Below the pieces are notes generated by a model that was not told where the DNA came from, made no database searches, and was given only the letters and a program-made list of their open reading frames with translations. This document shows positions 4,967-47,601 of a stretch of 64,000 nucleotides of DNA, one piece after another. Made by a program: the position numbers and the translations under genes. This DNA is from Symsagittifera roscoffensis. Taxonomy: Eukaryota. Each line of letters begins with the position of its first letter. Within the stretch, counting starts at the first letter, position 1. The DNA is taken from NCBI RefSeq assembly GCF_963678635.1, contig NC_087064.1, positions 45,921,437-45,985,436 of the forward strand, read 5' to 3'.

Positions 4967-5022
4967 GCTGTTGTTGTTGTTGTTGTTGTTAATGTTGTTG
5001 TTGTTGTTGTTGGTGGTGGTGG

Positions 5023-5077
<55 letters not shown>

Positions 5078-9934: not shown

Positions 9935-11620
9935 CCTTATCTTCAGATTCTGAAAAGAAAAGAAAAACGCCATCTCCACAGAAACCGGCCGCAAAGAGAT
10001 TAGACATAAAGCACCCCAGAACAAAACTCACCAGAATCTAGACGTTCTCCTAGGACTAGAAAAAGCGCACTCACTATAAAACTAGAAAATCTCAATCCGA
10101 TTAGCCAAATGTCGGAATCGAAAACGTCCGCAATAGTTGTATGCAGCATCGAGGAAACCGACACGCATAACAACATGCCCAACGAGACCAACAAAAACCA
10201 AGACACCCAAACAACTGATACGAAGAAGAACACAAAAGGACAAATCCTTTCGGATGGAATCACGTGTACAAAAAAAACAAGTGGATACTTCCAAGTCAGA
10301 AAATACAAGATCCAAAGAACCAAATACGCCGCATTTACACTCTCTCACCACAAAGACAAACAAATTCTTTATACATTCTCGACAGACCGAAAACGACAAA
10401 AAAATCCATTTAGCAAAAATTTTGAAACAGAAATGAATATTCTGCCTTCTATCTCCCCGGTCCGGGGTAACTCGATGACGTTCCAAAGAGAACGTGAAAC
10501 TCATATAGGACAATAACGTATCCAGAAAAAGAACCACAACAAACAAAAAACATCAATAGAGCCCCAATTAACGTGGACAAAACGTCAGACGCTAAAAAAT
10601 ATAACGACACGACGAAGAAAAGAGAGCAAAATTGATAGACTCAATTGTTCAAAAAGAGGGAAACCTTGTCCATCCCGATTTTACAGAAATACAACTAATG
10701 ATTATGAACCATACTAAAACACCAATTGGTAACTCTACTTTATTTATAGGTTTTATTGATTAGCGTATAGAAGTATGATGGTTAAATAAGTATAGACAAA
10801 AGTACTAGTTCTTGTAAGAGACTGTCTCTCAAATGAGTCGAGATCAGTGTCACCCAGACTTAAGCAGATAAGTGAGTTTAAATTGCTATTTAACCTGTTT
10901 TATTCAATCAAAGTTAGATGTTGCCAACGTAACTATGGCTTACCCTCACCTAACTGATGAGAGTATAACATGGCGCAGCCAGCAGTTTTGAAAAACACTC
11001 TCGAAAATACTCCACTGCGGCAAAAAGCCTCGGTAGAAACATTAACTGTGGGGGATATTTGCAATCAGCTGTTATTTCTGGTAATCATAGCCAAAGATGG
11101 TAGTAATCTGCAGAAATTTCATGGACCAGCAACACCAACACAAAAATCTCAGCAACCAGGTAACAAACTACCATTCAACGGGGAACCAAAACACAAGTTA
11201 GAGGTTGAGACCTGGGAAATTAGGAAAAAAGAATACAAGGGGAGAATCAATGTCAACTTCTGGACAATCTAGGACCAACTGTAGACGATTTACCGTGGGA
11301 ACAAGCGGACATGAAAAATCGCAGCTATTTTTATTTGTGTCTAGGGACAGAGGCCAAAGGCGGCAAAAAAAACCTCACTCGAACCTGAAGATACAAAATC
11401 TAACAACTAGATTTCTATGTACAGACTAGAAACAATGTCTTTAAAAAACCGAAAAAAGTATCATTTGACAGATATGAAGCGTTCACGCGCAAGCAGGGAA
11501 AAACGGAAACATTGGAGCAGATCCCCTGCGGCTTAACAGAACTCGTAGTAATAGGAAACTTCAAATGCACAACTTGTAGCGACGGAGGACGTGAGGCAGA
11601 AATTGACAGAGACCTATTCA
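9935..11620 (+). repeat. 1.68-kb sub-repeat, the founder unit of the 37.6-41.3-kb tandem array. The identical copy is at 17,946-19,631. It contains a purine tract at 9,952-9,967 and a CA|TGGCGCAGCC junction at 10,969-10,980.
   Basis: Array junction ...gaaattgacagagac|tttatcttcagattctg joins the equivalents of 11,620 and 9,935. The embedded ORFs (MSESK..., MAQPAV..., MRPGKL...) are T-poor compositional artefacts. Confidence 0.7.
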
Positions 11621-16900: not shown

Positions 16901-19900
16901 CCGGCATTACCAGCGGAGGCCAGGCGGGACCGAGAGAAAAACAGCGAGGACGTTCTAGTCCTGATGTACAGAGATACATATGCGCCAGAACCCAGAGAGC
17001 ATACATACCTACCAGAGCCAACATATAACCCACCCAATGAGAAGACTGCCACAACGACTATGGAGGACACAGTTGAAAACAGTCACAAAATAAATGCGAC
17101 AACGAAACCTGGGAAAAAAGAATTCAAAGGACCAATCAAAACGTGGATGCGCACCTTAAAAAATTTCCGGTGGGTGCGTAGCTTTCATTTTCTAACCAGC
17201 CTTATGACCTGAAAAATTTTAAGCACGCCTTCTCAAGTGAAAATATATTAAACGACAAAGGACCTAGAAAAGCCAAAAGGGCGCAAACCAATAAAACACT
17301 CACAGAACAAGAAAAGCAAAACCTCGAAATAGCACCACTAGTTTTCCTACAGGACCGCTTCAAAGGTCCAGCGCACACGATTGACCCAAAAACGGGACAT
17401 TGAATAGCCAGGAAAACGAGACCAGTTCCACGAAAAACGAAAAATCAAGGCACATTTGAAACTCAAATTAAAATATCCAAACGGGTCAAAATTAACTACT
17501 CAACACACCGCGTGGATCAGGGCAGACGGCAAACAACCGCGAGTAATTAGACACGATGGTCTTGCATTCATACGAGACGCAAGCGTCTACGGAAAATGAA
17601 GACCTGTGACGCTGATGGATTTTGTAGTTTATAAACATCAACCAAGAGCCAAATCTCATGTCTTAGGAGAGCGCAAACTTGCTGACAGGTGACCCTCCAA
17701 ACAGACCGCCACAACCACCAGTCCTGTGCGACCACCCCCAAAATCTATCTGAGAAGTCATTCAGCAATCGATTAACCGCAGGGCATTGGATCCACAAAAG
17801 TTGTTCGAATCTTTTGTATCGAAGACAAAACGGCCCCAAAAAAACCCAAGGACGACGAATCACAAATAAAACAACAACAAACCATACTACGAGGAAAAAT
17901 GAGCCCCAAGAAGCAATCCAGAGTACTCATCAGTCAAATTGAGTTCCTTATCTTCAGATTCTGAAAAGAAAAGAAAAACGCCATCTCCACAGAAACCGGC
18001 CGCAAAGAGATTAGACATAAAGCACCCCAGAACAAAACTCACCAGAATCTAGACGTTCTCCTAGGACTAGAAAAAGCGCACTCACTATAAAACTAGAAAA
18101 TCTCAATCCGATTAGCCAAATGTCGGAATCGAAAACGTCCGCAATAGTTGTATGCAGCATCGAGGAAACCGACACGCATAACAACATGCCCAACGAGACC
18201 AACAAAAACCAAGACACCCAAACAACTGATACGAAGAAGAACACAAAAGGACAAATCCTTTCGGATGGAATCACGTGTACAAAAAAAACAAGTGGATACT
18301 TCCAAGTCAGAAAATACAAGATCCAAAGAACCAAATACGCCGCATTTACACTCTCTCACCACAAAGACAAACAAATTCTTTATACATTCTCGACAGACCG
18401 AAAACGACAAAAAAATCCATTTAGCAAAAATTTTGAAACAGAAATGAATATTCTGCCTTCTATCTCCCCGGTCCGGGGTAACTCGATGACGTTCCAAAGA
18501 GAACGTGAAACTCATATAGGACAATAACGTATCCAGAAAAAGAACCACAACAAACAAAAAACATCAATAGAGCCCCAATTAACGTGGACAAAACGTCAGA
18601 CGCTAAAAAATATAACGACACGACGAAGAAAAGAGAGCAAAATTGATAGACTCAATTGTTCAAAAAGAGGGAAACCTTGTCCATCCCGATTTTACAGAAA
18701 TACAACTAATGATTATGAACCATACTAAAACACCAATTGGTAACTCTACTTTATTTATAGGTTTTATTGATTAGCGTATAGAAGTATGATGGTTAAATAA
18801 GTATAGACAAAAGTACTAGTTCTTGTAAGAGACTGTCTCTCAAATGAGTCGAGATCAGTGTCACCCAGACTTAAGCAGATAAGTGAGTTTAAATTGCTAT
18901 TTAACCTGTTTTATTCAATCAAAGTTAGATGTTGCCAACGTAACTATGGCTTACCCTCACCTAACTGATGAGAGTATAACATGGCGCAGCCAGCAGTTTT
19001 GAAAAACACTCTCGAAAATACTCCACTGCGGCAAAAAGCCTCGGTAGAAACATTAACTGTGGGGGATATTTGCAATCAGCTGTTATTTCTGGTAATCATA
19101 GCCAAAGATGGTAGTAATCTGCAGAAATTTCATGGACCAGCAACACCAACACAAAAATCTCAGCAACCAGGTAACAAACTACCATTCAACGGGGAACCAA
19201 AACACAAGTTAGAGGTTGAGACCTGGGAAATTAGGAAAAAAGAATACAAGGGGAGAATCAATGTCAACTTCTGGACAATCTAGGACCAACTGTAGACGAT
19301 TTACCGTGGGAACAAGCGGACATGAAAAATCGCAGCTATTTTTATTTGTGTCTAGGGACAGAGGCCAAAGGCGGCAAAAAAAACCTCACTCGAACCTGAA
19401 GATACAAAATCTAACAACTAGATTTCTATGTACAGACTAGAAACAATGTCTTTAAAAAACCGAAAAAAGTATCATTTGACAGATATGAAGCGTTCACGCG
19501 CAAGCAGGGAAAAACGGAAACATTGGAGCAGATCCCCTGCGGCTTAACAGAACTCGTAGTAATAGGAAACTTCAAATGCACAACTTGTAGCGACGGAGGA
19601 CGTGAGGCAGAAATTGACAGAGACCTATTCACAGGCAATGTGTTCAACGATGAAGTGCAAAAAGATCTGCTAGCGGAAAAGAATCTCCCGAACAAGCGTT
19701 ATTTGTCAGTGTCTTCAGAATTTCTGTCAATTCCTCTGGAGTGCAAGCTCTGTAGATGTTTGTGCGATTGCTTTTGATAGAATTACTGATAATATCGTGC
19801 CACAACACCACTTGACGTTTTTCTGCTAGAGATGCCCTGCATAGTGGGTTTGAGAGGTTTTTCTGCGAGTTCGTGGTGTTCGAGTTAAAGGAAAGTCACG

Positions 19901-25285: not shown

Positions 25286-25369
25286 TACTCATAGTAACCC
25301 TAATATTTACAAAAAGGAGTCAAAAAGTTTCCGTATATTTAGAAAATTTGTTTGATTAACTGTGGCTTA

Positions 25370-27554
25370 CCCTCACCTAACTGATGAGAGTATATAATGG
25401 CGCAGCCAGCAGTTTCGAAAAAAACTCTCGAAACATTTCCATCGCGGCAAGAAGCCTCGGTAGAACCATTAACCGTGGGGGATATTTGCAATCAGCTGTT
25501 TTTTTTGGTAATCATAGCCAAAGATGGTAGTAATCTGCAGAACTTTCTTGGACCAGCAACACCAACACAAAAACCTCGGCAATCAGGTAACCAAATACCA
25601 GTCAACGGAGATCCAAAACACAAGTTAGAGATTGAGACCTGAGAAATTAGGAAAAAAGAATACAAGGGGAGAATCAATGTCAACTTCTGGACAATCTAGG
25701 ACCAACTGTAGACGATTTACCGTGGGAACAAGCGGACATGAAAAATTGCAGCTATTTTTATTTGTGTCTAGGGACAGAGGCCAAAGGCGGCTAAACAAAC
25801 CTCACTCGAACCTGAAGATACAAAACCTAACAACTAGATATCTATGGACAGACTAGAAACAATGTCTTTAAAAAACCGAGAAATGTATCATTTGACAGGT
25901 ATGAAGCATTCACGCGCAAGCAGGGAAAAACGGAAACATTGGAGCAGATCCCCTGCGGCTTAACAGAACTCGTAGTAATAGGAAACTTCAAATGCACAAC
26001 TTATAGCGACGGAGGACGTGAGGCAGAAATTGACAGAGACCTATTCACAGGCAATGTGTTCAACGATGAAGTGCAAAAAGATCTGCTAGCGGAAAAGAAT
26101 CTCCCGAACAAACGTTATTTGTCAGTGTCTTCAGGATTTCTGTCAATTTCTCTGGAGTGCAAGATCTGTAAATGTTTGTGCGATGGCTGTTGATAGAATT
26201 ACTGATAATATCGTGCCACAACACCACTTGACGTTTTTCTGCTAGAGATGCCCTGCATAGTAGGTTTGAGAGGTTTTTCTGAGAGTTCGTGGTGTTCGAG
26301 TTTAAGGAAAGTCACAGAATAGCCGATATTTTGGGCAGAAATTGTTCCTTTTCCGGGTTGCTAAGACGTTCCAGGCTGTGGTTAGCCGCTACAATGTAGA
26401 CCATTTTAATTCTAACATAATTTTCAAAAAACCAAAAATCCGAAAAACAAAGGAAAAATTAAATTTTTAATTCTTTGTAGGAGAAACTGTAATTGAGACT
26501 TGGCTCAACGCCGTAGAGTTTTACAATTTTACAACTAAATAAGTTGAGACCTACATCTAAATAAATTGTCTGACAGACTTTGAAAAACTATAAATTGACT
26601 CAGTTTACTCTAAGTTTGCAATTTCTTCGTGGTCTTGCTGTATTGTTTTTTATGGCTCTCATTATATTTTTCTATGATGTATTATGTTTCAGCGCAATTG
26701 TTGTTGTTTTTTTTTGAAATTTGGTAATGAAATTTTGAATTTAGTTTTATAATGAAATAAATTAACGTGACTCTTTAGCACTTTTCTCTAATTTTCTTAA
26801 TTTTTTTTATAAAAGTGTGCTTTCTTTGAAAAACTATATATACTTCGAAATAATTAACTTCAGTAAATAGCAAGGCTAGCCGGTAGTTATGCAAGTAAAC
26901 TAAGCAATTCCGCAGAAAATTTGCGTCTACAAAAAAACTTGAAAACAGTTGTTTCTGTTAGGTTATGAGCGGATCTAAGCAAAAACCTAGAAAATAAGCA
27001 TATTTTGTAGTAAATGTAGAATATGCGTTTCTGATAATGTTTTTTTTCGAAATTTTTATCAAAAAAAAACAAATAAAAAAAAAAAAAAAATTTCCATTTT
27101 TTGGCAGTTTTTTCAAAAGTTTTAAAAATGAGTTCAAAAAACTTCAATAACTCATAATATTGGAGAAAAATTCAGTTTTTACATTTTTTTTGCGTATTAG
27201 ATTTTCAGATTAGGAAGATACGACGATATGCATGTAAATGTGCCCATACTAACAGAGTCTTCTCGCGGTGTAATGTTTCAGCTGAAACGACCTAAACGCC
27301 TGAAAGCTGAACAAAATTTCTTCTATCAAAATTGCATACTGGTCAATACTTTAAAGATAGACGTGAGGGTTTATTGTGGTCTCAAACAGCTACTACTGAG
27401 GAAATTCTGGTTGAAATTTGGAGAATTTAATGAAAATGACAAGTGCACGTGGAAAATTGGGTGCGATTGTGCGGCGAACAACTGCCGCAGCAAGACGTAC
27501 ATGTGACGATACAATGAAGGGGCCAGGACCCCATGTGGAAACACAGAAGCCATC

Positions 27555-27599
<45 letters not shown>

Positions 27600-31235: not shown

Positions 31236-31335
31236 AAAGTCATAATAATAATCATAATAATAATAATCATAATAATAATCAAAACAATAATCATAATAAT
31301 AAAAAAATAAATATCACAAAAATAGTAATATTAAA
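31236..31335. repeat. AT-rich minisatellite, same family
   Basis: Direct reading. Confidence 0.8.
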
Positions 31336-32058
31336 AATAATCACATTTATCATGATAAAAATACTCATAGTAACCCTAATATTTACAAAAAAGAGTCAAA
31401 AATTTTCCGTATATTTAGAAAATTTGTTTGATTAATTACAAAAAAAACGAAAAACATATTAATTCTTAGGTCGAGAGTTTGACCGTAATAAGCATAATAA
31501 AACATAATTGAATTCAATTTTTGTTTCACTGAGATGCAGAGTAACTGACTTTAAACTAAGAGTGTATAATCTGGCAAATTTTCGCTTAACTTTTTCTAAA
31601 AAGCGTTAAAATTGTAAAGTCAAGCAAACGCTTTTGCTTATTTTTTTTGCATCTTCAGATTTCAAAAAACTAAACTACTCTGTACAAAATGATCAAAAAT
31701 CCTAAAAAGTGTCATTCGAGTCATTTCTTTCAAATTTAAAAAACTTAAGCAATCAAATTTCACAGATATAACTAAAGTTTTGTTAGAAGCATGATGTAAC
31801 AATTTCAATAATTTACAATTTCTTTTTGTTGCTAATTTCATGCTATCAAGTAAGTGATTTAAATAGTGTAAACTCCCTACTTCAAACTCATCGCGCGCAA
31901 GAATTGCTGGTCTCCCATTCCTATTGTTACACTACTAGTTTGTGCAATCAGAAATGCCAGTTCTCCAGATGTGTTTGGTGTCTTTATTGTGAACTGTATA
32001 ATATGATGTAGTAATTTTGCTGCCAGCAGCACCTCTTCAGGATCACCCTTTACTGTTT

Positions 32059-32517
32059 TCATAATATCTTTAATGTAACGGAGAAAAAGTTAGCCTGCTG
32101 CACTGATTTATTTTTCTCCCTTATCGCGGTGCATTTTCTGCAGTACCAGTCGGTTTCACTTATATTTCGATGCTCATCAAATGATATATCACCGCATTTT
32201 ACGTAATACGAGTTCAAAAAGCATGGGCATCCCACACCTTTTGACTTGTACGTGACCTTCTTATTGCACTCGAGACATATTCCATTAAGTTCTTTTTCGG
32301 GCAAAAACCTTTCACGAACATCCCCCCGAAAGTTCAGTTTCGTACTGCTTCAGCCAAAGGTTTGCTATAAAACGACAATAGTTGCCCTTTTTGCCGAACC
32401 ATTTTTTCTGAACATACTATGTTTCACTGCACTTGAAATGGACTTGACTAACTACCATATTAGTTTTTTTTTCATGGTTCTCTGTAACTGCTGTTGTTGT
32501 TGTTATTGTTGTTGACG

Positions 32518-32603
<86 letters not shown>

Positions 32604-32614
32604 ATTGTTGTTGC

Positions 32615-32657
<43 letters not shown>

Positions 32658-32659
32658 GC

Positions 32660-32705
<46 letters not shown>

Positions 32706-33131
32706 GCTTTTGTTGTTGTTGTTGGTGTTGTTGTTGTTTTCTGTCCCCTGAGACTTGGGTATTTTATTGCCGAAGGCCAAAACTTCTCATCTACACCCCT
32801 CTGTACTGCGCCTTTCGCCTTTTCCAGTTTTCCCTTGAAGTTTTTCTCATCTGTCCTTGCCTTGGTTAATCTCCGTTCCTAAAATTCTTGTCTGAAAATT
32901 ATGTACCGCTTGGTCCGAAAACATCCCATTTTGCGGTACCCTCAACCTCAAAAAATTATGTATATTGTCGTTTTCGAGACATCCTCTTGGAAATTTACCA
33001 CGCTGGTGGCAGTTGATAAATATAAAATATATGGATGCATAATCACAGACTAATTTCCAAGTGCGTGTCTTTTTAAGGTCCAAATCAAGTTTGGAGGTTC
33101 GAGGCCTCGAGGAATAAACCTCATGTGACAC
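32059..33131 (-). mobile_element. PLE-2 copy in P-unit B. It has the N-terminal domain, the (AAC)n tract and the C4HC3 finger. It lacks the 860-bp 5'-RT segment that is present at 3,940-4,800.
   Basis: Minus ORFs 32,847-33,131 and 32,059-32,304 are paralogues of 5,207-5,491 and 3,539-3,784. The sequence at 32,440-32,490 joins directly to the microsatellite. Confidence 0.6.
32491..32737. repeat. (GTT)n microsatellite, the paralogue of 4,856-5,097 with different length and variants
   Basis: Direct reading. Confidence 0.95.
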
Positions 33132-33554
33132 AATTCAACCCAAATAACACAAGTTTAACTCACCTGCTCCGTTGAAGTCTCCTCGTCAGTTCGTCCAACA
33201 ATTTCACCTCCTCTGTCCACTGTCTTTTTTTCTCCACCCTCCTTCTCGTTTGCTAGTTCTTTTTCTTGTATGAACGAAGCTTCGACGAATCAGCTGGTAG
33301 GTTGTCTCTGTGTTCGATCACAATCCGCAAAGATTTTTTTAGCTCCAGCTGGATGTCCTGGTGTAGTCCCTGATATTCGTTCACCAGCTCCGTTCTTCTC
33401 ATCCCTTTGAAATCAGACACCTCGTAATAGAAATGACAAGAATACCCGAGCTGATGAGCTGGTTCCTGATATCTGGTGTACCGTTTCTCTGACAGTATAC
33501 ATTTGCGCTGATATTTGTCATTGTCTTCAAGATTTATGTCAATTCCTCTGGAGT

Positions 33555-36500
33555 GCAAGCTCTGTAAGTGTTTGTGCGATGGCTGTTGATAGAATTACTA
33601 ATAATGTCGTGTGACACCACCTTTTGACGTTTTTCTACTATAGATGCCCTGCAGAGTAGGTTTGAGAGGTTTTCTGCGAGTTCGTGGTATTCGAGTTTAA
33701 GGAAAGTCCCGGATTAGCCAATTTTTTGGGAAGAAATTGTTCGTTTTTAGGGTTGCTAAGTTGCTCCAGGCGCTACAATGTACACCATTTCAATTCTAAC
33801 AGGCTATTCTAACAAATCACAATTCTAACCAGGGCTCCAAACAAGAATAGAGGGATCAAAAAATCTTACAGTTCACACAGAATTTTTTGAAACGTGGACA
33901 ACAGCGCGGCAACAACGTGGACGGCTTTATCCTAGCTCCACATTCAAGAAAAAATAGAAAACGAAGTACGGTCTCTGATTGACCAGGGACACATGATTCG
34001 CTGAAAAAATGAAGTGACCAGCAGTTTCTTAGTCTCATTGTAATAACTGTGAAAAAAGATCAAACCTTGAAATTGGCAATGAATTCAAAACAAGTAAGCA
34101 AATCGTTCTATGAAAACAAGCATCGAATGCCTAACATTGACGTTTTGCTTGATAAAATTGAACACTTGCCCAAGAAGTTTGAAACAAACCAAATACAACA
34201 TACTTTTTCAACAGTAGACGTATGCTACGAATATAGACAACCGACAATAGACAATGACAGCCGGCTGCCATCAGACAAAAAAACACATACACATTGTAAT
34301 TTTAGTTTTATCAGTGGTAGAGCTACAAAAAACTCTCAGTTCCAAACGGGACCCTGCGGGCTTACAGATATGTGCGCATAATTGTGAAAAACGAATACGA
34401 CACAATCCCTATGCAAAAGAAAACATATTAAAATTACAAAACCCTACAACCTTCAAATGGCCCAAAAGCTTCATTGGCTCCATTCATCGTTTAAATAATT
34501 CCTACCAAACTTAGCCCAATAGTGTAGGGCCATTTTTACCTACAACAAATTAATTCCACTGTGCATGAAACGCTGATCGCACAAAAGCATTTAAAAAAAC
34601 ATTACCTACAGTACAAAATATCACCGAAAACAGAATTTTCGTAAGCGATAGGGAAACGCGTATTGTATGCGACGCAAGTCGAGAAGAAAGAGAGGCGGCT
34701 CTCGAACAAATTACACCGCACGGCTGGGCAACAATTGCATATGCGTCGCGTTTACTAAACTCTTATGAACACAAACATTCAATCAATGAAGTGGAACTCT
34801 TGGCAGCAGTCTGGCAGATGTTTCACACTAAATACAGACCACTAAGCAATAGTAAATGCTTTACAAAGTAACGGGGGAAATAAAACCTATCAAAACCGTT
34901 GAATCAGGTTGACCGACAGACGTTTTTTGTTCAACTTTGATATAAAAACAGCTAGGAGGCAGTAAAATGGGTAGCTTTCACGACACACGTGAGGAAAACT
35001 TCTCCCCAGCATACTGGGAAGAACATTTTGTCATTACATTAATCGACGACTTTGTCAATTGCATAAAGTTTGAAAATAGCAGTGCTGCAAATATATTATT
35101 GAACAATTCTCCAACCGGATATTTTGGCACGAAGAACTCAACCCGAACGAAATATTTAAATCTTCACATTCGATTTAAATGCAAACAGCATTCACCGTTA
35201 AAATTCAATCTTTACACACTAGACGTTCAATAGACTTGCAACATTCCGTTCCAAGTTCAATTGAAATTCTAAAAAAGCGATAAAATGGACAGACCTTTTA
35301 TACAATGATTGCCATTAACACCGTTCAAAAGAGTCACATTAAAATGCCACAAAGGCAGTCAAGCACAATTATCCTTCGCACAAACCAATTACGCCTCTTT
35401 ATTGAGTCTCTTGTCAAATCACCTCCCCCCGAAATAACAATCAGCGAGGTCAAACACCAAGCGATCACATCGGTCGGAACCTTCACCTTCCGAAGAGTCC
35501 AGAATGAGAAAGCGGACGCGATTTGCCAAAGATTAGAGGAGGGGAGCGCTTTAAGGAAGAAGGCATTCCACTCTTCCGGAAAACATGTGAAGAGTAATAG
35601 ACATAGACTTAATTACAGCGGCCACAAAAAAGCTCGAGTTTTTTCTCCAATCGTCAACATGGTCAAGCAGCAGAAATGGGACAACCAAAGCTTGTTATAG
35701 AACCTACTTTTACAACGTGCGGCACCGCCTGTCGTTTAGGGACAACATCTTACTTAACGACTATAGGGTCGTGATACCGAGGGCTACACTAGTGGATGCA
35801 ATGCATTCAACCCACCTGGGAAAAAATTGCATGTTAGAGGCAGCCAAACACGTGTGGTAGCCATTCTTACACCGCGACCTAGTCTCCACCGCACAAAACT
35901 GTAAAAAATATCGAGACAAGGGTAAGGACTTTGAAGTGATATCAGACAAGCAACACTATACCACGCTTGATATGTTGGTAGAACCTAACAAAGAATACCA
36001 ATTGGATTTCGCGGGACCACTATCCGAAACAAGGAAAAGGATTTATAGTGGTTGTAGAATAATTCTCCTGTTTCCATTCGGTCAAGGTGCTTAAAAATAA
36101 TAAAGCGGATACAAGCATCTGATTTATGCAAAATCACCTTATCAATCATCGTGTGAACAGGCACAAAACGTACGGTGCGACCAAGCACAAAACTATAGGG
36201 CCAACAAATGTGTATTTCGCTGTAAAATTAACAATAACAAAACTAATATATATACCAGTAGATAACCACAAGTCCATGGGTTTGGTGGAAGGGCTTATTA
36301 GAACTCTGAAACCAAGATTATAGGTAATAAGAATCGACAAAACAAACAGGTCGTATAAACTTGCGTCGGAAGTGGCCGAGCGGATTTAAACACTTCAAAT
36401 TACGCGACCACTAAGATTACGCCATTTGAAGCCCAAAATGTCATAAAACACACCACTGAGTAACATCAGCGCATCACCAAAACTTTCAAACATTTCATGC

Positions 36501-37594
36501 GAAAACAAGAAACTTTCATAATTACATTCAAAAATAACTAATAAAGCCGGCATTACCAGCGGAGGGCAGGCGGGACCGAGAGAAAAACAGCGAGGACGAG
36601 CTAAACTTGATGTACAGAGATACATACGCGCCAGAACCCAGAGAGCGTACATACCTACCAGAGCCAACATATAACCCACCCAATGACAAAACTGCCACAA
36701 CTACTATGGAGGACACAGTTGAAAACAGTCACAAAACAAATGCGACAACGAAACCTGGGAAAAAAGAAGGCAAAGGACCTATCAAAACGTGAATGCGCAC
36801 CTCAAAAAATTTCCGGTGGGTGCGCAGCTTCCATTTTCTAACCAGCCCTAAGACCTGAAAAATTTTAAGCACGCCTTCTCAAGTGAAAATATAATACACG
36901 ACAAATGACCTAGAAAAGCCAAAAGGGCGCAAACCAATAAAACACTCACAGAACAAGAAAAGCAAAACCTCGAAAGAGCACCACTAGTTTTCCTACAGGA
37001 CCGCTTCAAAGGTCCAGCACACACTATTGACCCAAAAACGGGACATTGAATAGCCCGGAAAACGAGACCAGTTCCACGAAAAACGAAAAATCAAGGCAAA
37101 TTTGGGGCTCAAATTAAAATTATCCAAACGGGTCAAAATTAACTACTCAACACACCGCGTGGATCAGGGCAGACGGCAACCAACCGCGAGTAATTAGACA
37201 CGATGGTCTTGCATTCATACGAGACCCAAGCGTCTACGGAAAGTGAAGACCTGCGACGCTGAAGGATTTTGTAGTTTATAAACATCAACCAAGAGCCAAA
37301 CCTCATGTCTTAGGAGAGCGCAAACTTGCTGACAGGTGACCCTCCAAACAGACCGCCACAACCACCAGTCCTGTGCGACCACCCCCAAAATCTATCTGAG
37401 AAGTCATTCAGCAATCGATTAACCGCAGGGCATTGGATCCACAAAAGTTGTTCGAATCTTTTGTATCGAAGACAAAACGGGCCCAAAAAAACCCAAGAAC
37501 AACGAGTGACAAAGAAAACACCAACAAACCATACTACCAGGAAAAATGAGCCCCAAGAAGTAATCCAGAGTACTCTTCAGTCAAATTGAGTTCC
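33555..37594 (+). repeat. X' segment. It is a ~95% copy of 5,908-9,935 and includes the gypsy-like pol remnant at 34,049-36,330.
   Basis: ORFs 34,049, 34,254, 35,305 and 36,126 are paralogous to 6,421, 6,608, ~7,660 and 8,469. Confidence 0.8.
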
Positions 37595-40500
37595 TTATCT
37601 TCAGATTCTGAAAAGAACAGAAAAACGCCATCTCCACAGAAACCGGCCGCAAAGCGATTAGACATAAAACACCCCAGAACAAAACTCACCAGAATCTAGA
37701 CGTTCTCCTAGGTCTAGAAAAAGCGCACTCACCATAAAACTAGAAAATCTCATTCCGATTAGCCAAATGTCGGAATTGAAAATGTCCGCAATAGTTGTAT
37801 GCAGCATCGAGGAAACCGACAAGCACAACAACATGCCCAACAAGACCAGCAAAAACCAAGACACCCAAACAACTGATACGAAGAAGAACACAAAGCGACA
37901 AATTCTTTCGGATGGAATCACGTGTACGAAAATACAAGTGGATACTTCCAAGTCAGAAAATACAAGATCCAAAGAACCAAATACGCAGCAAACCATACAC
38001 ACTCTCTCACCATAAAGACCAACAAATTCTTTTTACATTCTCGACAGACCGAAAACGACAGAAAATCCAATTAGCAAAAATTTCGAAACAACAATGAATA
38101 TTCTGCAATCTATCTCCCCGGTCCGGGGTAACTCGATGACGTTCCAGAGAGAACGTGAAACTCATGCAGGGCAACAACGTATTCAGAAAGAGAACCACAT
38201 CAAACAAAAAACATCAATAGAGCCCCAGTTAACGAGGACAAAAAGTCAGACGCTAAAACATATAACGACACGACGAAGAAAAGAGAGCAAAATTGATAGA
38301 CTCAATTGTTCAAAAAGAGGGAAATCTTGTTCATCCCGATTTTACAGAAATACAACTAATGATTATGAACCATACTAAAACAACCAATTGGCAACTCATA
38401 CTTTATTTATAGGTTTTTGTGATTAGCGTATAGAAGTATGATGATTAAATAAGTATAGACAAATGTACTAGTTCTTGTAAGAGACTGTCTCTCAAATGAG
38501 TCGATGTCAGTGTCACCCAGACTTAAGCAGAGAAGTGAGTTTAAATTGCTATTTAACCTGTTTCATTCAATCAACGTTAGATGTTGCCAACGTAACTGTG
38601 GCTTACCCTCACCTAACTGATGAGAGTATAACATGGCGCAGCCAGCAGTTTCGAAAAACACTCTCGAAATTACTCCATTGCGGCAAAAAGCCTCGGTAGA
38701 ACCATTAACCGTGGGGGATATTTGCAATCAGCTGTTATTTCTGGTAATCATAGCCAAAGATGGTAGTAATCCGCAGAACTTTCTTGGACCAGCAATACCA
38801 ACACAAAAACCTCAGCAACCAGGTAACAAACTACCAGTCAACGGAGAACCAAAACCCAAGTTAGAGATTGAGACCTGAGAAATTAGGAAAAAAGAATACA
38901 AGGGGAGAATCAATGTCAACTTCTGGACAATCTAGCACCAACTGTAGACAATTTACCGGGGGAACAAGCGGACATGAAAAATCGCAGCTATTTTTATTTG
39001 TGTCTAGGGACAGATGCCAAAGGCGGCTAAGCAAACCTGACTCGAACCTGAAGATACAAAACCTAACAACTAGATATCTATGAACAGACTAGAAACAATG
39101 TCTTTAAAAAACCAAGAAATGTATAATTTGACAGGTATGAAGCGTTCACGCGCAAGCAGGGAAAAACGGAAACATTGGAGCAGATCCCCAGTGGCTTAAC
39201 AGAACTCGTAGTAATAGGAAACTTCAAATGCACAACTTGTAGCAACGGAGAACGTGAGGCAGAAATTGACAGAGACTTTATCTTCAGATTCTGAAAAGAA
39301 CAGAAAAACGCAATCTCCACAGAAACCGGCCGCAAAGAGATTAGGCATAAAGCACCCCAGAACAAAAGTCATCAGAATCTAGACGTTCTCCTAGGACTAG
39401 AAAAAGCGCACTCACCATAAAACTAGAAAATCTCCTTCCGATTAGCCAAATGTCGGAATCGAAAATGTCCGCAATAATTGTATGCAGCATCGAGGAAACC
39501 GACACGCATAACAACATGCCCAACGAGACCAACAAAAACCAAGACACCCAAACAACTGATACGAAGAAGAACACAAAGCGACAAATCCTTTCGGATGGAA
39601 CCACGTGTACGAAAATACAAGTGGATACTTCCAAGTCAGAAAAAACAAGATCCAAAGAACCAAATACGCAGCAAACCATAGTCACTCTCTCACCACAAAG
39701 ACCAACAAATTCTTTTTACATTCTCGACAGACCGAAAGCGACAGAAAATCCAATTAGCAAAAATTTCGAAACAGCAATGAATATTCTGCAATTTATCTCC
39801 CCGGTCCGGGGTAACTCGATGACGTTCCAAAGAGAACGTGAAACTCATGCAGGACAACAATGTATCCAGAAAGAGAACAACATCGAACAAAAAACATCAA
39901 TAGAGCCCCAATTAACGAGGCAAAAAAGTCAGACGCTAAAACATATAACGACACAACGAAGAAAAGAGAGCAAAATTGATAGACTCAATTGTTCAAAAAG
40001 AGGGAAATCTTGTTCATCCCGATTTTACAGAAATACAACTAATGATTATTAACCATACTAAAACAACCAATTGGTAACCCATACTTTATTTATAGGTTTT
40101 ATTGATTAGCGTATAGAAGTATGATGAATAAAGAAGTATAGACAAATGTACTAGTTCTTGTAAGAGACTGTCTCTCAAATGAGTCGAGGTCAGTGTCACC
40201 CAGACTTAAGCAGAGAAGTGAGTTTAAATTGCTATTTAACCTGTTTCATTCAATCAACGTTAGATGTTGCCAACGTAACTGTGGCTTACCCTCACCTAAC
40301 TGATGAGAGTATAACATGGCGCAGCCAGCAGTTTCGAAAAACACTCTCGAAATTACTCCATTTCGGCAAAAAGCCTCGGTAGAACCATTAACCGTGGGGG
40401 ATATTTGCAATCAGCTGTTATCTCTGGTAATCATAGCCAAAGATGGTAGTAATCTGCAGAACCTTCTTGGACCAGCAACACCAACACAAAAACCTCAGCA

Positions 40501-41340
40501 ACCAGGTAACAAACTACCAGTCAAAGGAGAACCAAAACACAAGTTAGAGATTGAGACCTGAGAAATTAGGAAAAAAGAATACAAGGGGAGAATCAATGTC
40601 AACTTCTGGACAATCTAGGACCAACTGTAGACGATTTACCGTGGGAACGAGCGGACATGAAAAATCGCAGCTATTTTTATTTGTGTCTAGGGACAGAGGC
40701 CAAAGGCGGCTAAACAAACCTGACTCGAACCTGAACATACAAAACCTAACAACTAGATATCTATGGACAGACGAGAAACAGTGTCTTTAAAAAACCGAGA
40801 AATGTATCATTTGACAGGTATGAAGCGTTCACGCGCAAGCAGGGAAAAACGGAAACATTGGAGCAGATCCCCTGCGGCTTAACAGAACTCGTAGTAATAG
40901 GAAACTTCAAATGCACAACTTGTAGCAACGGAGAACGTGAGGCAGAAATTGACAGAGACTTTATCTTCAGATTCTGAAAAGAACAGAAAAACGCAATCTC
41001 CACAGAAACCGGCCGCAAAGAGATTAGGCATAAAGCACCCCAGAACAAAAGTCATCAGAATCTAGACGTTCTCCTAGGACTAGAAAAAGCGCACTCACCA
41101 TAAAACTAGAAAATCTCCTTCCGATTAGCCAAATGTCGGAATCGAAAATGTCCGCAATAATTGTATGCAGCATCGAGGAAACCGACACGCATAACAACAT
41201 GCCCAACGAGACCAACAAAAACCAAGACACCCAAACAACTGATACGAAGAAGAACACAAAGCGACAAATCCTTTCGGATGGAATCACGTGTACGAAAATA
41301 CAAGTGGATACTTCCAAGTCAGAAAAACGGAGAACGTGAG
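37595..41340 (+). repeat. Tandem array of the 1.68-kb sub-repeat. It has two full 1,683-bp units (37,595-39,276 and 39,277-40,959). The third unit (40,960-41,340) carries an internal ~1.3-kb deletion.
   Basis: ORF-track entries recur at +1,683 (37,767 to 39,450 to 41,133; 38,633 to 40,316; 38,868 to 40,551). At 41,326 the sequence jumps from the equivalent of ~10,300 to ~11,590. Confidence 0.85.
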
Positions 41341-43180
41341 GCAGAAATTGACAGAGACCTATTCACAGGCAATGTGTTCAACGATGAAGTGCAAAAAGAT
41401 CTGCTAGCGGAAAAGAATCTCCGGAACAAGCGTTATTTGTCAGTGTCTTCAGGATTTCTGTCAATTCCTCTGGAGTGCAAGCTCTGTAAATGTTTGTGCG
41501 ATGGTTGTTGATAGAATTACTGATAATATCGTGCCACAACACCACTTGACGTTTTTCTGCTAGAGATGCCCTGCATAGTGGGTTTGAGAGGTTTTTCTGC
41601 GAGTTCGTGGTGTTCGAGTTAAAGGAAAGTCACGGAATAGCCGATATTTTGGGCAGAAATTGTTCCTTCTCCGGGTTGCTAAGATATTCCAGGCTGTGGT
41701 AGAAGGAATTAGCCGCTACAATGTAGACCATTTCAATTCTAACATTTTTTTAAAAAACCAAAAATCCAAAGGAAAAATTAAATTTACAATTCTTTGTAGG
41801 AGAGACTGTAATTGAGACTTGGCTCAACGCCGTAGAGTTTTAGAATTTTACAACTAAATAAGTTGAGACCTACATCTAAATAAATTGTCTGACAGAGTTT
41901 TTGAAAAAATATAAATTGACTCAGACTACTCTAAATTTGCAATTTCTTCGTGGTCTTGCAAAAAAAAACGTTTAGCATTATAATCATGTTAACTATCTTT
42001 TGCTTAAAATTTAGACGATGCTTTGTGGTAAATTCGTAAGTTTTAAAAGCAGAACAAACAACTACAAAAAACAATTTGGTAAGCCTTAAATTGAAAAAAA
42101 TTGAAAAATGAAAAATATCTTTTACAATACCGCATGAGTTTATTTCAGTTCAATTGAAAAACTCCCAGCCGATTGCAACTAAAACTCCTAATCTTTCTTA
42201 TTTTCAATGTTTCCCATCAAAAAGAATAAAAAATAATTACATTACTCTGAAATTTTTGCTGCAAAGCCGCGTGAATTTAACTCAATTCGATTGAAAAACT
42301 CCCAGCCAGTAGCTTTTGAAACTATTTCAGATTAACTACAAAAAACAATTTGGTAAGCATTAAATTGAAAAAAATTGAAAAATGAAAAATATCTTTTACA
42401 ATACCGCATGAGTTTATTTCAGTTCAATTGAAAAACTCCCAGCCGATTGCAACTAAAACTCCTAATCTTTCTTATTTTCAATGTTTCCCATCAAAAAGAA
42501 TAAAAAATAATTACATTACTCTGAATTTTTGCTGCAAAGCCGCGTGAATTTAACTCAATTCGATTGAAAAACTCCCAGCCAGTAGCTACTAAAACTATTT
42601 CGGATTAACTGCAAATTAATCCAGATAAAACACCAAACTGCTGTATTGTTTTTTATGGCTCTCATTATATTTTTCCATGATGTATTATGTTTCAGCGCAA
42701 TTGTTGTTGTTTTTTTTTGAAATTTGGTAATGAAATTTTGAATTTAGTTTTATAATGAAATAAATTAACGTGACTCTTTAGCACTTTTCTCTTATTTTCT
42801 TAATTTTTTTATAAAAGTGTGCTTTCTTTGAAAAACTATATATACTTCGAAATAATTAACTTCAGTAAATAGCAAGGCTAGCCGGTAGTTATGCAAGTAA
42901 ACTAAGCAATTCCGCAGAAAATTTGCGTCTACAAAAAAACTTGAAAACAGTTGTTTCTGTTAGGTTATGAGCGGATCTAAACAAAAACCTATAAAATAAG
43001 CATATTTTGTAGTAAATGTAGAATATGCGTTTCTGATAAAGTTTTTTTCGAAATTTTTATCAAAAAAAAAAAATTCCATTTTTTGGCAGTTTTTTTAAAA
43101 GTTTTAAAAATGAGTTCAAAAAACTTCAATAACTCATACTATTGGAGAAAAATTCAGTTTTTACATTTTTTTTGCGTATT
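41341..43180 (+). repeat. Copy of the Y-end and Z segment (equivalent to ~11,590-13,150). It contains an internal ~190-bp direct duplication at 42,020-42,590.
   Basis: 41,161-41,511 and 41,520-43,150 match 11,512-11,766 and 11,770-13,150. The block ttggtaagc(a/c)ttaaattgaaaaaaattgaaaaatgaaaaatatc... occurs twice. Confidence 0.75.
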
Positions 43181-43993
43181 ATAAGCCCACTCGATTCATA
43201 AGACAATTACTTGTGGTACTTGATTTTTTATAGAAAAAAAAAACAAAGTAAAAAATATTAAAACACACGCGAATACGACAAGTTTTGAGCCAAAAATGAT
43301 TTTGTAAGTCTTTTCAAAAATTTCATACCCCCTAAAACTGCCTGTAATAGCACTACCCAACCAATAGTTAATAGTAATTTAACACACTCAGCAATTACCC
43401 ACCCATACGTGATACGACTAACTTTTTTAAACTAGTTGATAACCCGAAAAAAGTCTGGATTTCATTTGATAACGCTTGCTAATCGCATGCTTGAGAAACC
43501 AGATGAGTTTAGTTTATCGAAAGAATTTAATAATTGTCAGACTTAAAAGCTCCTGAATTTTACAAAAAGTTATAGCCGGTTATACTCTCTTGACTTCATG
43601 GCTCTCATTGTTAAATTGAAGTTTTCTAAGAGGTATAGAATTGTCCACATTCTTGCAGTAAATTTTGCACAAATTTGTTTTAACTTGTGGGTTAGACTTC
43701 ACAAAAATAAACAATCTGGAGGTGTAATTTTACACTAGAAAGCTTGTTTGTGTACATAACATTAATAAAAAATCAAACCTTTTAGTAGTTCGAGCGACTG
43801 ACAAACTGTTTGTGCAAATTTCAGCTTTTAGTTTTTAGTCAGATTATAGTTTTTCAGCTTTTAGTTTTCAGCTTTCAAGTTTTTAGTCAAACAGACCAAA
43901 AATGATCATTAAGCGATATTTATGGCCAAGAGTGACTGGTGGCGTAAACTTAATTCAGAATATCTTGATTAAGGATTGTTAAATGCATGCTTG

Positions 43994-45615: not shown

Positions 45616-45766
45616 CTGCAACAATTATTATCTCAAATCCGCACGTTCGAACAACCGTTAAGTTCAAAAAAACTTACACGCAAATTAGAGCACACTACAA
45701 ATACAATGACCAGAAATAGTAAACGTGACTATGAGACAATGAACAAAGATTACTCGTGACAGGTAC

Positions 45767-45910
45767 CTTGGTAGCCATTGTTTGTTCAACTTTCCACACC
45801 GAACTATTTCTCTTTTCGTACTCCTTCGGGCAGATCATGTGGACGAATCCATTCGCATCTCCAATGTAGAACAAGCCCTGTTCTCGTGCATCCACTTCAA
45901 AACAAGTCCA
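45767..45910 (-). CDS. WD40-repeat protein gene, exon E9. The donor is firm. The acceptor is ambiguous, with alternatives up to ~45,945.
   Basis: Donor ACCAAG|GTACCT in phase 0 joins in frame to E10. The translation includes DAREQGLFYIGDANGFVHMICPKEYEKRNSSVWKVEQTMATK. Confidence 0.45.
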
Positions 45911-46273
45911 CTGAGAAGAAGAGAATTCGTGACAAGTTTCTATTCTGTAACCTAGAAGAAAAATAAATATTTCAACACTGGGGCCAAATAAGATGACAGA
46001 GCGTTAAAAAACAGATTTAAGCCGGTTACACTCAAAACAATTCATTAATTTTAAAATTTTAACTTATCTGACAAAAAAAAGAACAGCCAATCGAGGATTG
46101 CAAAAGACTAATGAACGCAATTAAACATAAAAAAACACTGTTGAAAAAATCTCAACTTTTGAATTTCAAAGTAAAAAATAGATGCCCTTTAAGCTCTTTG
46201 AATTTCTAGAACAATTTATGATTGCCGCTTTTTTGATAACATTAACCCAAATTGAGAAAACTGGATCAACAGG

Positions 46274-46634
46274 CAGGGGCGGATTTAGGGGGGCGGACGC
46301 CCCCCCCCCTCAGGGATTCGACCCCCTGCCGACCCAAAGGGTCCCCCCTTTGATACTTTTTCAGAAATCCATTTTTGGCCGACCGACCGTAAAATTTTTT
46401 TAAAGGCTCTTTCGGCGCCAATATATATTAACTTTGAGGGGGAGCGCGCGCCAAAAAAACGCGATTTTTTTGTGAAAGTTTTTCCAAAAAGTGCCCAAAA
46501 TAGGGGCAAAACAGTGCTTTGGGAGAGCTCGAAAAATCAATTTGATCGACCTAAAAAAAAGGTCGTCAAAATTTTGGAAAATTTTTTGAAAATCCGCCCC
46601 CCCTCCCCTCGAGAAAATCCTAGATCCGCCCCTG
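46274..46634. mobile_element. hAT-like MITE of 361 bp with 16-bp imperfect TIRs (CAGGGGCGGATTTAGG / CCTAGATCCGCCCCTG). It is flanked by an 8-bp target-site duplication TCAACAGG at 46,266-46,273 and 46,635-46,642.
   Basis: Direct reading. The TIR begins CAGGG, matching the hAT YARNG rule. An 8-bp TSD is the hAT hallmark. The element is a GC-rich island in an AT-rich intron. Confidence 0.65.
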
Positions 46635-46899
46635 TCAACAGGTAAAGTTTTTTTCCGCTGGGAAATCTTTAGAAACAAATTCTACTTTCGAAACTAGAAA
46701 ACGCTCACGAATTTTTGCGCCAACTGCACGTTCGTTTTTGGAGAGTGCTATTTACGTCACTTTCAGCAGATGAATTTCAATTGATCTCAAAAAATGCATT
46801 ATACCTAAGTGCATCAATATTTTAAGATTTACCTGAAAAAAAATCAGTAGGACCTATATGATAGTCTTCACTACGTTCATTACTCTTAATCATTTAAAT

Positions 46900-47250
46900 T
46901 TGATCAGATTGATTGAACTATCATTGCTTTGCACAGTCGTCAACCATAGTTTACCGGCTCTTCGGTCCGGAGTCTGGAACAAAGCGTTCGATGAGCTAAC
47001 AAAACAATCGCGTTCATCCATACTACAGTGCAGGTTCCAGAAAGTCTTATTTGGCCCCTTCACTACCAGCCAATCAGTACGCCAGGGCTCATCTTTCAAA
47101 GATGGAGAGGCTGTGCTCCACAGATTCATTACGTTCTCTGGTCTGGAGACGCTTCGAGCTAATGCAGTCAATGAACCGTCCCAGCAACAGAACAATATTG
47201 GGTTCTTTTTGTCAATAAGGGACGACACTTTGCGTATATTGGCCACTGGA
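46900..47250 (-). CDS. Candidate additional exon (E8) of the WD40 gene. Boundaries are unresolved.
   Basis: Minus ORF 46,890-47,297 (135 aa, no stops) contains ...PILFCCWDGSLTALARSV...NLWSTASPSLKDEPWRTDWLVVKG. The overlapping plus-strand ORF 46,858-47,307 is probably the mirror artefact. The 3' end overlaps SINE-like tail sequence. Confidence 0.25.
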
Positions 47251-47601
47251 GATCCTAGATCAGTTGTCGACAACAAACTAGAACGCAACATTATCAAGTT
47301 TTCGTAAAAATTTCAGACACTTACTCAGCTTCATTAAAATAAAAATATTAAATTAGGCAACTTTTAAGGCTGAATTCATGATGCTTAATATGGAGTTGAT
47401 CTATAATTCTCTCAATCTCCCCCTAATTCCACCCCGAGTAGAAAGAATAAAAGAATTTTTGTAAAAAAAGAAACACTTTCGAAGAAAGAACGACACACTC
47501 AATTCGCAGGTTGATCGCTTATAGTTTAAGTATACTTCCAGTCAGTCTCATTTTATTGCTCACAAAACCTCTCGAACATTTCTTCAACATTCCAGACTCA
47601 C

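Follow-up and report, generated by a model that had tools for sequence, protein, structure and literature searches.

Organization of the tandem array

The window (that is, the whole 64-kb stretch of DNA analyzed) contains at least three segmental copies of ~14 kb, and within copy III a 1,683-bp segment of a decayed retrotransposon is repeated head-to-tail. The array was detected by repeat finding together with self-BLAST; TRF, with a longest period of 500, was blind to it. Repeat finding gave an exact period of 1,683 bp. Copies of the unit start were located at 9937, 17948, 37595, 39278 and 40961 (spacings of 8011, 19647, 1683 and 1683), the last three being the starts of the array units. By self-BLAST, 37595-39644 matched 39278-41327 with 96.9% identity, and the reference segment (9937-11613) matched 39278-40959 with 94.3% identity. 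The units, their joints and the equivalent segments elsewhere in the window are as follows:

37595..39277, + strand: unit U1, 1,683 bp, with the 3' part of orfB, PPT, LTR, PBS and gag codons 1-215
39278..40960, + strand: unit U2, 1,683 bp, with 62 substitutions and zero indels relative to U1
40961..41365, + strand: partial unit U3, the first 366 bp (one mismatch to U2) plus the unit's final 39 bp
41326/41327, + strand: deletion joint of U3, sequence CCAAGTCAGAAAAACGGAGAACGTGAGG, with AAC microhomology
39261..39290, + strand: junction J1, from gag codon ~215 to orfB codon ~90, AGAAATTGACAGAGAC-T-TTATCTTCAGATT
40944..40973, + strand: junction J2, same sequence as J1
9937..11620, + strand: the equivalent segment as a single copy in segmental copy I; LTR at 10667-10970
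17948..19631, + strand: second copy, identical to 9937-11620, inside the 8,011-bp duplicate
25357..26047, + strand: part of the equivalent segment as a single copy in segmental copy II, namely the final ~41 bp of the LTR, PBS and the 5' part of gag

The array thus amounts to 2.24 head-to-tail units at one locus in the 64-kb window, in agreement with the roughly 2.2-fold amplification of a retroelement-derived 1,683-bp segment (spacings of 1683 and 1683) described in an earlier note on this DNA. The same note had the segment as single-copy in each 8-kb unit, which was also found (9937-11620 and 17948-19631, in units of 8,011 bp), and its internal deletion of ~1.3 kb in the last unit corresponds to the 1,278 bp that are absent from U3, where 40961-41326 is fused directly to 41327-41365 in the assembled sequence. 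The end of the array, previously placed at 41340, should be moved to 41365.

The array junction (...GACAGAGAC/TTTATCTTCAG) occurs two times. The precise and novel nature that had been ascribed to it was confirmed with the junction 30-mer AGAAATTGACAGAGACTTTATCTTCAGATT, which was found exactly twice, at 39261 and 40944, against an expectation of 0 in shuffles. At the junction itself (39277 and 40960) stands a T, where both parental contexts have C, and microhomology at this joint is 0-3 bp, CCT being shared at most. No further junction copies occur in the 64 kb, and both junction and unit are absent from the remaining 20 kb of the window. A search with the unit-end 19-mer, which occurs in junction and non-junction contexts alike, returned six loci in metagenome_contigs, all of them bare 19-20-mer chance matches, and 0 matches in viral_contigs. 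Two ORFs of the window, looked up by exact sequence, had no recorded match.

Composition of the unit and its parent element

Each unit consists of ~730 bp from the 3' internal region (orfB, starting near codon 90, and PPT), followed by LTR, PBS and gag codons 1-215; orfB is represented by its last two thirds, as judged by comparison with intact relatives. OrfB is a post-pol ORF, the third reading frame of the decayed retrotransposon. The anatomy of the window (orfB, PPT, LTR, PBS and gag) was mapped from the relatives by alignment and tblastn, which gave these further features:

38328..38633, + strand: LTR in U1, 306 bp, TGTT...AACA, with the PPT at 38312-38324 and the PBS (TGGCGCAGCCAGCAG) at 38634-38648
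40011..40316, + strand: LTR in U2, 306 bp; PPT at 39995-40007, PBS at 40317-40331
33512..37594, + strand: the same dead element of copy III upstream of the array, with an S remnant, pol (RT with its core missing, RNase H and integrase), orfA and the start of orfB
41366..41700, + strand: downstream of the array, gag continued (codon ~216 to ~240), then an S remnant

The origin from an 'LTR and leader' region suggested in the earlier note could be kept for the LTR, one of which, complete with 306 bp, is present in the unit. It had to be given up for the leader, because the gag ATG straddles the boundary between LTR and PBS and leaves the unit without one.

An intact relative from another assembly, L001 (9653-16835), carries gag, pol, orfA and orfB between 349-bp TG..CA LTRs that are 99.7% identical, has the target-site duplication CAACC, and shows the domain order RVT_1, RT_RNaseH(_2), Integrase_H2C2 and rve. 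The window pol is colinear with that of L001 at 6241-8681 and 33829-36338. Both the order of coding regions (gag, then pol with RT, RNase H and integrase) and the LTR ends TGT(T/C)...AACA, with PPT (AAAAAGAGGGAAA) and PBS (TGGCGCAGCCAGCAG) placed as in L001, are those of Ty3/gypsy (Metaviridae) elements. On Pfam, the window ORF fragments gave an RNase H match only (RT_RNaseH_2). Pol residues 270-352, which lie within the RVT_1 match, are absent, and the frameshifts are common to all copies. Pol, orfA, orfB, PPT, LTR, PBS and gag follow one another directly on the + strand, as in a head-to-tail tandem with a shared LTR. No LTR pair or target-site duplication was found in the window, where each copy has a single LTR between 3' and 5' internal sequence, and a complete insertion with two LTRs and a target-site duplication was seen only in relatives such as L001. 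The parent is a long-dead remnant of Ty3/gypsy type (pol-orfA-orfB-LTR-gag), in which two elements share one LTR.

A 315-bp overlap, S (5873-6182 versus 11689-12024, 78-84% identity), marks slightly over one period of this tandem. This repeat of 261-340 bp had been considered as the LTR and was rejected, as the relatives map the true LTR to 10667-10970. S has weak matches to gag 223-270, pol 48-54 and pol 96-129, and is the overlap of a 5'-truncated and a 3'-truncated element in a degenerate gag-C/pol-N region.

All five relatives from other assemblies (L001 and L008-L011) are ordinary single elements of ~7.1 kb with LTR pairs of ~350 bp, and no comparable tandem arrays were found in them. A stop-free stretch of 233 codons in U2 (39351..40049, + strand) is homologous to orfB residues 123-300 of the L001 relative, with 40% identity, and has no Pfam match. 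It was rejected as a new gene: it is a truncated orfB homolog on an A-rich strand, and U1 and the reference copy both have this region in broken form. Neither Rfam nor tRNA scans gave a hit in the window. Searches with gag, pol and the host WD40 gene yielded nothing beyond unnamed ENA proteins and generic WD40 matches.

Divergence and relative ages of the units

U1 and U2 differ at 62 of 1683 positions (3.7%) in an alignment without indels, and the divergence extends through all three parts of the unit (4.5%, 2.6% and 3.3%); the last 85 bp are identical. U2 and U3 differ at a single position in 366 (0.27%). The ~14-kb segmental copies are 4.8-5.4% apart (4.8% for the flanks of copies I and III, 5.3-5.4% for the unit versus the reference), and the divergence between U1 and U2 is about two thirds of that value.

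Relative to copy I, U1 and U2 have 58 substitutions and 5 indels in common. In a four-taxon test with copy II as the fourth taxon, the informative sites were 4:0:0 in favor of (U1,U2), for the last 685 bp of the unit that copy II spans, the first 1 kb being without an outgroup. The terminal branches were 12 and 8 for U1 and U2, against 19 and 18. Over the first 280 bp the three copies are nearly equidistant, with 4 shared sites versus 6 and 8 private ones, which are small numbers. These data make U1 and U2 sister copies, so that the duplication took place locally and at the DNA level. It should be noted that gene conversion between U1 and U2 could imitate a younger sister relationship, and that a recent duplication explains the near-identity of U2 and U3 (1/366) equally well as concerted evolution does.

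As judged from the sequence divergence, the first duplication is old, and only the partial U3 is recent. The view of an array 'being born' therefore does not apply to U1 and U2, which are already 3.7% diverged, and holds solely for U3 (0.27%). The array gathers substitutions like the surrounding junk.

Origin of the array

Taking all evidence together, we consider a local, nested tandem duplication at the DNA level inside a dead remnant of Ty3/gypsy type, in two steps, an old and then a recent one, to be the most probable origin (probability about 0.8). The coordinates, composition, sister relationship and relative ages of the units are shown by the data above, and the molecular mechanism of each step is what we infer. 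In the old step, after the 14-kb copies had separated, copy III would have undergone a tandem duplication of 1,683 bp, a stretch that has orfB codon ~90 at one end, gag codon ~215 at the other and the LTR in between. The join would be non-homologous or microhomology-mediated, and template switching during replication or end-joining between sister chromatids are candidate routes; the T at the junction would have to be ascribed to a C>T change after the event or to a base added without template. In the recent step, the 1.7 kb of homology between two units may have enabled the formation of a third, copied from U2, by slipped or unequal exchange or by a template switch within the identical last 85 bp. 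The 1,278-bp deletion in U3 at AAC could have arisen together with the unit, through two template switches, or shortly afterwards.

Nested tandem duplications of 14 kb, 8 kb and 274 bp are also present in the region. The 8,011-bp duplication is 99.96% and the 274-bp duplication 97.5% identical, and the joints of these two duplications and of the copy II deletion show 1-4-bp microhomology. The category that fits this locus best is tandem segmental duplication mediated by microhomology, with unequal exchange as a later step (replication slippage, FoSTeS/MMBIR or NHEJ). Direct tandem copies, joints with 0-4-bp microhomology, homology-driven copy gain, a gain-plus-deletion event and several differently sized events in one region are all shared with it, and no difference is visible.

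Other origins were weighed against this two-step duplication. The observed layout would be produced exactly if three elements had once stood in tandem (ancestor X-LTR-E-LTR-Y) and the middle one had lost the ~5 kb between gag codon 215 and orfB codon 90. An LTR-UTR~LTR model has been published for CRM-derived repeats such as maize CRM1TR (PMC3648361), Drosophila LTR tandems show internal-to-internal junctions (PMC5932611), and the parent already is a shared-LTR tandem. However, such an ancestor predicts that U1 and U2 differ from each other at least as much as from copies I and II, with the single copy grouping with one unit, whereas the 4:0:0 sites, the five shared indels and the shorter branches make U1 and U2 sisters. 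It also has copies I and II collapse to one LTR, which requires independent collapses. This origin is disfavored, and we regard it as very improbable. An internally deleted, non-autonomous element (LTR-gagN/orfB'-LTR) made elsewhere by template switching of reverse transcriptase was also considered, as the array contains the following arrangement:

38328..40316, + strand: LTR-PBS-gag(1-215)/orfB(~90-end)-PPT-LTR, 1,989 bp, probably a by-product of the duplication

Here two LTRs, PBS and PPT stand in the correct order, a layout like that of LARD or TRIM elements, and reverse transcription typically leaves deletions at short homologies. Yet there is no target-site duplication at 38328-40316 as a mark of mobility, and the sequences to the left of the first LTR and to the right of the second run colinearly into the resident element, on the PPT side and on the gag side. 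Moreover, the divergence between U1 and U2 extends over the LTR as well as the rest of the unit, no mosaic boundary being seen, and the lineage-specific changes of copy III are common to both units. It is thus highly improbable that an element of this kind was formed elsewhere, and hardly to be expected that one entered by retrotransposition, ectopic recombination or gene conversion. As for array formation in situ, reverse transcription could not have been responsible, since the pol gap and the shared frameshifts indicate that the element was dead before the duplication.

A repeat that was mis-joined or over-expanded in assembly might be suspected, given that U3 is oddly truncated and nearly identical to U2 and that the adjoining 8,011-bp duplicate is 99.96% identical. 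However, with 62 differing sites U1 and U2 must be separate genomic sequences rather than a single one read twice, and at the deletion joint of U3 the sequence is continuous, with clean microhomology; we consider an artifact extremely unlikely. The locus could also be the seed or an outlier of a satellite or macrosatellite, that is, a small family copy of longer 1,683-bp arrays elsewhere, for example in pericentromeres. The head-to-tail units, the identical junction and the recent second expansion step fit such an idea, and LTR/UTR regions of LTR retrotransposons have served as satellite sources (PMC3648361, PMC7004042, PMC5932611). Of the features of a satellite, head-to-tail units of constant period are present, and a long array of tens of copies or more does not occur in the 64-kb window. 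Against a satellite stand the mere 2.24 copies, the 3.7% difference between U1 and U2 without sign of homogenization, the lack of further copies in the remaining 20 kb and the single elements in the five relatives. In addition, several unrelated nested duplications occur at the locus, and a general tendency to local duplication suffices. Satellite membership is therefore very unlikely and is speculation, and the duplication is real but ordinary. For a junction that is unique to this locus, with no larger arrays, the earlier note itself had reserved the reading of a local triplication only, which is the default.

Significance and comparison with known systems

It is conceivable, if very doubtful, that the duplication of a stretch of 3' internal sequence, LTR and 5' internal sequence rebuilt a complete LTR-PBS-...-PPT-LTR mini-element (38328-40316) from dead DNA, together with a 1.68-kb tandem seed, and that the junction acted as a founder elsewhere in the genome. 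If so, this junction could be the founder of a new non-autonomous family or of a satellite with kilobase monomers, and the junction 30-mer would occur at many loci; this role presupposes proteins supplied in trans by active relatives, or continued unequal exchange. Only amplification or mobilization of the junction elsewhere in the genome would give the locus greater interest. As it stands it carries little weight, being a further low-copy tandem duplication in a graveyard of transposons that is prone to duplicate. Its modest value is that of a dated, fully resolved case of the earliest stage assumed by TE-to-satellite models, with relative ages for the successive stages: a shared-LTR tandem, a non-homologous duplication across the LTR and a homology-driven step with deletion.

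Among known systems, the centromeric satellites of potato (monomers of 979 bp to 5.4 kb) and the 4.7-kb Sobo repeat, as they are cited in PMC3648361, are similar in having kilobase monomers with homology to LTR retrotransposons. In that account their arrays extend over hundreds of kilobases to megabases, to which nothing at the locus is comparable. In Ogre/Tat elements, short tandem repeats of the 3' UTR have given rise to satellites by expansion (Vondrak et al., 2020, PMC7004042, and Macas et al., 2009, cited therein). As at our locus, the repeats involve the region 3' of pol in Ty3/gypsy elements, and stepwise expansion from short arrays has been proposed. However, the Ogre/Tat monomers are short, lie within each element copy and are thought to be made during replication of active elements, with long arrays formed later, whereas the unit described here spans LTR and gag, occurs at one locus and originated at the DNA level in a dead copy.

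Head-to-tail tandems of LTR retrotransposons that share an LTR, and low-copy tandems with internal-to-internal junctions, have been described (McGurk and Barbash, 2018, PMC5932611, citing Ke and Voytas, 1997), the latter as common raw material of satellites. Both are matched here, by the shared-LTR parent (pol-orfB-PPT-LTR-PBS-gag) and by the new junction, internal-to-internal and of low copy number. In Drosophila such tandems, as inferred from read pairs, are young polymorphisms that belong to active families, whereas the present element was already dead and its first duplication is old. Finally, the maize tandem repeats CRM1TR and CRM4TR derive from centromeric Ty3/gypsy retrotransposons (Sharma, Wolfgruber and Presting, 2013, PMC3648361). 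Their monomers also consist of an LTR and adjoining internal sequence, with one non-homologous internal junction in every unit, and illegitimate recombination has been proposed for their initiation. They form many-copy centromeric or pericentromeric arrays that are homogenized by gene conversion and transcribed, in contrast with 2.24 copies and no homogenization here, and the phylogeny at our locus favors a duplicated stretch of 3' internal sequence, LTR and 5' internal sequence over a deletion inside an element.

Structure of the tandem array

Seed-and-extend repeat finding in the window recovered five copies of the unit start (9937, 17948, 37595, 39278 and 40961), with spacings of 8011, 19647, 1683 and 1683 bp, and self-BLAST aligned 37595-39644 with 39278-41327 (96.9%) and 9937-11613 with 39278-40959 (94.3%). 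Both array joints read ...GAAATTGACAGAGAC|TTTATCTTCAG..., and the junction 30-mer occurred exactly twice in the window (39261 and 40944), the chance expectation being none. The head-to-tail array with a 1,683-bp period described previously is real; it was absent from the output of TRF, for which periods were limited to 500 or less. Its units are as follows:

37595-39277: U1, 1,683 bp
39278-40960: U2, 1,683 bp
40961-41365: U3, partial, first 366 bp (40961-41326) joined to last 39 bp (41327-41365)

The alignment of U1 with U2 spans 1,683 bp and shows 62 substitutions but no indels. The internal deletion of ~1.3 kb attributed to the last unit corresponds to 1,278 bp absent from U3, a gap bounded by AAC microhomology, and the last position of the array is 41365, not 41340 as stated in the earlier note.

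Composition of the unit and its intact relatives

Long ORFs are few in the window, the DNA of which is clearly eukaryotic and rich in repeats. In a protein search with conceptual translation, the unit matched gag proteins from ENA assemblies, which start with MAQPA..., and the window gag starts likewise at 10970, 38633 and 40316. One such gag belongs to an intact relative (L001, 9653-16835) with LTRs of 349 bp (99.7% identical, TGTTAT...ATAACA), a CAACC target-site duplication, the polypurine tract (PPT) AAGGAGGGAAA and the primer-binding site (PBS) TGGCGCAGCC, the TGG of which completes the gag ATG. This element carries four ORFs (gag, pol, orfA and orfB), and its pol contains RVT_1, RT_RNaseH, Integrase_H2C2 and rve, that is, the Ty3/gypsy order. 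Four further relatives share the ~7.1-kb layout, two of them with orfA and orfB fused as one 553-594-codon ORF3. Landmarks were carried from the relatives onto the window by alignment and tblastn, and are listed here for the single-copy reference, the equivalent of the unit in segmental copy I:

6241-8681: pol
8917-9230: orfA
9700-10498: orfB
10651-10663: PPT
10667-10970: LTR
10971-10985: PBS
10970-11679: gag codons 1-237

Thus, the 1,683-bp unit could be divided into three parts, with the left breakpoint inside orfB and the right one inside gag:

Part 1, about 733 bp: orfB from about codon 90 to its end, spacer and PPT
Part 2, 306 bp: one whole LTR
Part 3, about 644 bp: PBS and gag codons 1 to about 215

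As proposed, the unit derives from a retroelement and includes the LTR. A leader region had also been assigned to the unit; however, the gag start codon spans the LTR/PBS boundary (L001 9998-10015; window 10968-10985), the last LTR base A and the PBS TGG forming ATG. Thus, a 5' leader is wholly absent from these elements, and the non-LTR remainder of the unit is orfB and gag sequence.

A third ORF downstream of pol (orfA plus orfB) is conserved in this retroelement lineage (L001 14742-16454; L010/L011 14560-16345; window 8917-10498). Window and L001 versions share about 40% identity. No Pfam match was found for this ORF, which might be env-like.

The parent element

The parent (3' internal-LTR-5' internal) is a head-to-tail element pair with one common LTR. 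A 315-bp repeat, S (5873-6182 versus 11689-12024, 78-84% identity; further copies at 33512-33771 and 41434-41694), is the overlap of the 5'-truncated left element with the 3'-truncated right element, and the two copies enclose slightly more than one period (5,816 bp) of the shared-LTR tandem. The S copies have diverged 3-4 times as much as the 14-kb copies, so either the tandem is much older or two different elements were joined. In every window pol copy, the region matching residues 270-352 of the relative, which form the C-terminal half of RVT_1, is missing (sites 6732-6773 and 34378-34419); the amplified element was already non-functional. Stops and frameshifts are also common to all window copies, and the element was dead before any of these rearrangements. 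Across U1 and U2 runs a stretch (38328-40316) with the layout of a non-autonomous element (LTR-PBS-truncated interior-PPT-LTR), for which no evidence of past movement was found.

The surrounding segmental block

The window begins with 43 kb (80-43181) in which a ~14.4-kb block is repeated in tandem at least three times, the copies being 94-96% identical:

80-13930: copy I
22454-28035: copy II, with reference 2872-10929 deleted
28541-43181: copy III

Blocks are joined by a ~505-bp linker (21944-22453 and 28036-28540), and the block array may extend left beyond the window. Copy I holds a nested 8,011-bp tandem duplication (5918-21943; 99.96% identical, three differences), much more recent than the 1,683-bp array nested in copy III. 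Its joint at ~13929 shows A/AA microhomology only, and the copy II deletion, which stops 41 bp short of the LTR end, has TAA(C) at its joint (25330-25390); microhomology is thus just 1-4 bp at both. Copy III also carries a 274-bp tandem duplication (42060-42615, 97.5%) that is single in copy I (12309-12569), with a weak 137-bp sub-period detected by TRF. Long (TGT)n microsatellites of ~80 units occupy matching positions in copies I and III (4858-5098 and 32492-32738).

Age and origin of the array

Copies I and III differ by 4.8% with 11 indels over 4.7 kb of flank, units and reference by 5.3-5.4%, and U1 and U2 by 3.7% (orfB part 4.5%, LTR 2.6%, gag 3.3%). Against copy I, U1 and U2 have 58 substitutions and five indels in common. 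Over the 685 bp that copy II also has, parsimony-informative sites (4:0:0) favoured the grouping (U1,U2), and its terminal branches were 12 and 8 versus 19 and 18. By these divergences and this grouping, the first duplication arose in situ within the copy III lineage, once the 14-kb copies had split; it lies at roughly two thirds of the depth of that split and is not recent. U3, which differs from U2 at 1 of 366 positions and from U1 at 15, is a recent copy of U2. Thus, the suggestion that the array is just being born was overstated: it suits U3 but not the first duplication.

A three-element tandem followed by internal deletion, as modelled for CRM1TR of maize (PMC3648361), would give a matching layout, but it predicts U1 and U2 to be older than the segmental split and is contradicted by the phylogeny. 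Arrival of a deletion derivative by retrotransposition is likewise contradicted, as the locus has no target-site duplication and the sequence is colinear onward on both sides. An assembly artefact might be considered for U3 alone, but would fail to account for the 62 differences between U1 and U2. A true satellite elsewhere in the genome would be a further candidate. In the collections searched, which do not include the source genome, the unit-end 19-mer gave only chance matches among metagenome contigs and had no match among viral contigs, look-ups of the ORFs of the window found no record, and protein searches returned no near-identical sequence.

The locus is best classed as a nested tandem duplication, mediated by microhomology, within a transposon graveyard that is prone to duplication. 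The parental contexts at the breakpoint (GAGAC-C-TATTC and GTTC-C-TTATC) have at most CCT in common, plus AAATTGA nearby. Both joints have T as the junction base, which was therefore either changed before the later gain of U3 or untemplated. U1 and U2 are identical over their last 85 bp, which offer the homology for gaining U3; this gain could have come about by unequal exchange and then deletion, or in one replication event during which the template was switched twice.

Comparison with known repeats

Tandem repeats and satellites derived from transposable elements are already well documented. Maize CRM1TR and CRM4TR are LTR/UTR-derived tandem repeats (PMC3648361); that paper also cites retrotransposon-derived centromeric satellites with kilobase monomers in potato, as well as the Sobo repeat. 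In Ogre elements, satellites arise out of 3' UTR tandem repeats (PMC7004042). For Drosophila, frequent tandems with a shared LTR are described along with internal-to-internal tandem junctions at low copy number, and these are seen as satellite raw material (PMC5932611). The present locus resembles the earliest stage of the models for these repeats; its copy number is below that defining a satellite, and the satellite claim is unsupported.

Other features

Other transposon remnants in the block comprise a match to the GIY-YIG domain, ORFs with PHD fingers and N-terminal-domain-like ORFs; from their motifs, they probably come from a Penelope-like element. They lie at:

210-1592
3542-3829, minus strand
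4447-4788, minus strand
13583-13813

GIY-YIG and gypsy-type remnants in the first 43 kb are on the plus strand. To the right of the block lies an intron-containing WD40-repeat host gene (minus strand, exons 45698-59211, long introns), for which the protein database gave no close orthologue, only generic WD40 matches of 24-27% identity. A 1.25-kb direct repeat (55859-57102 and 62755-64000; 98.9% identical, 6,896 bp apart), which reaches the window end, may represent a pair of LTRs or a further segmental duplication within the host gene region. In L001, a gene product with a Monjiviricetes_fusion (PF24664) match (2172-4790) lies 5 kb away from the retroelement and may be an endogenous viral element.
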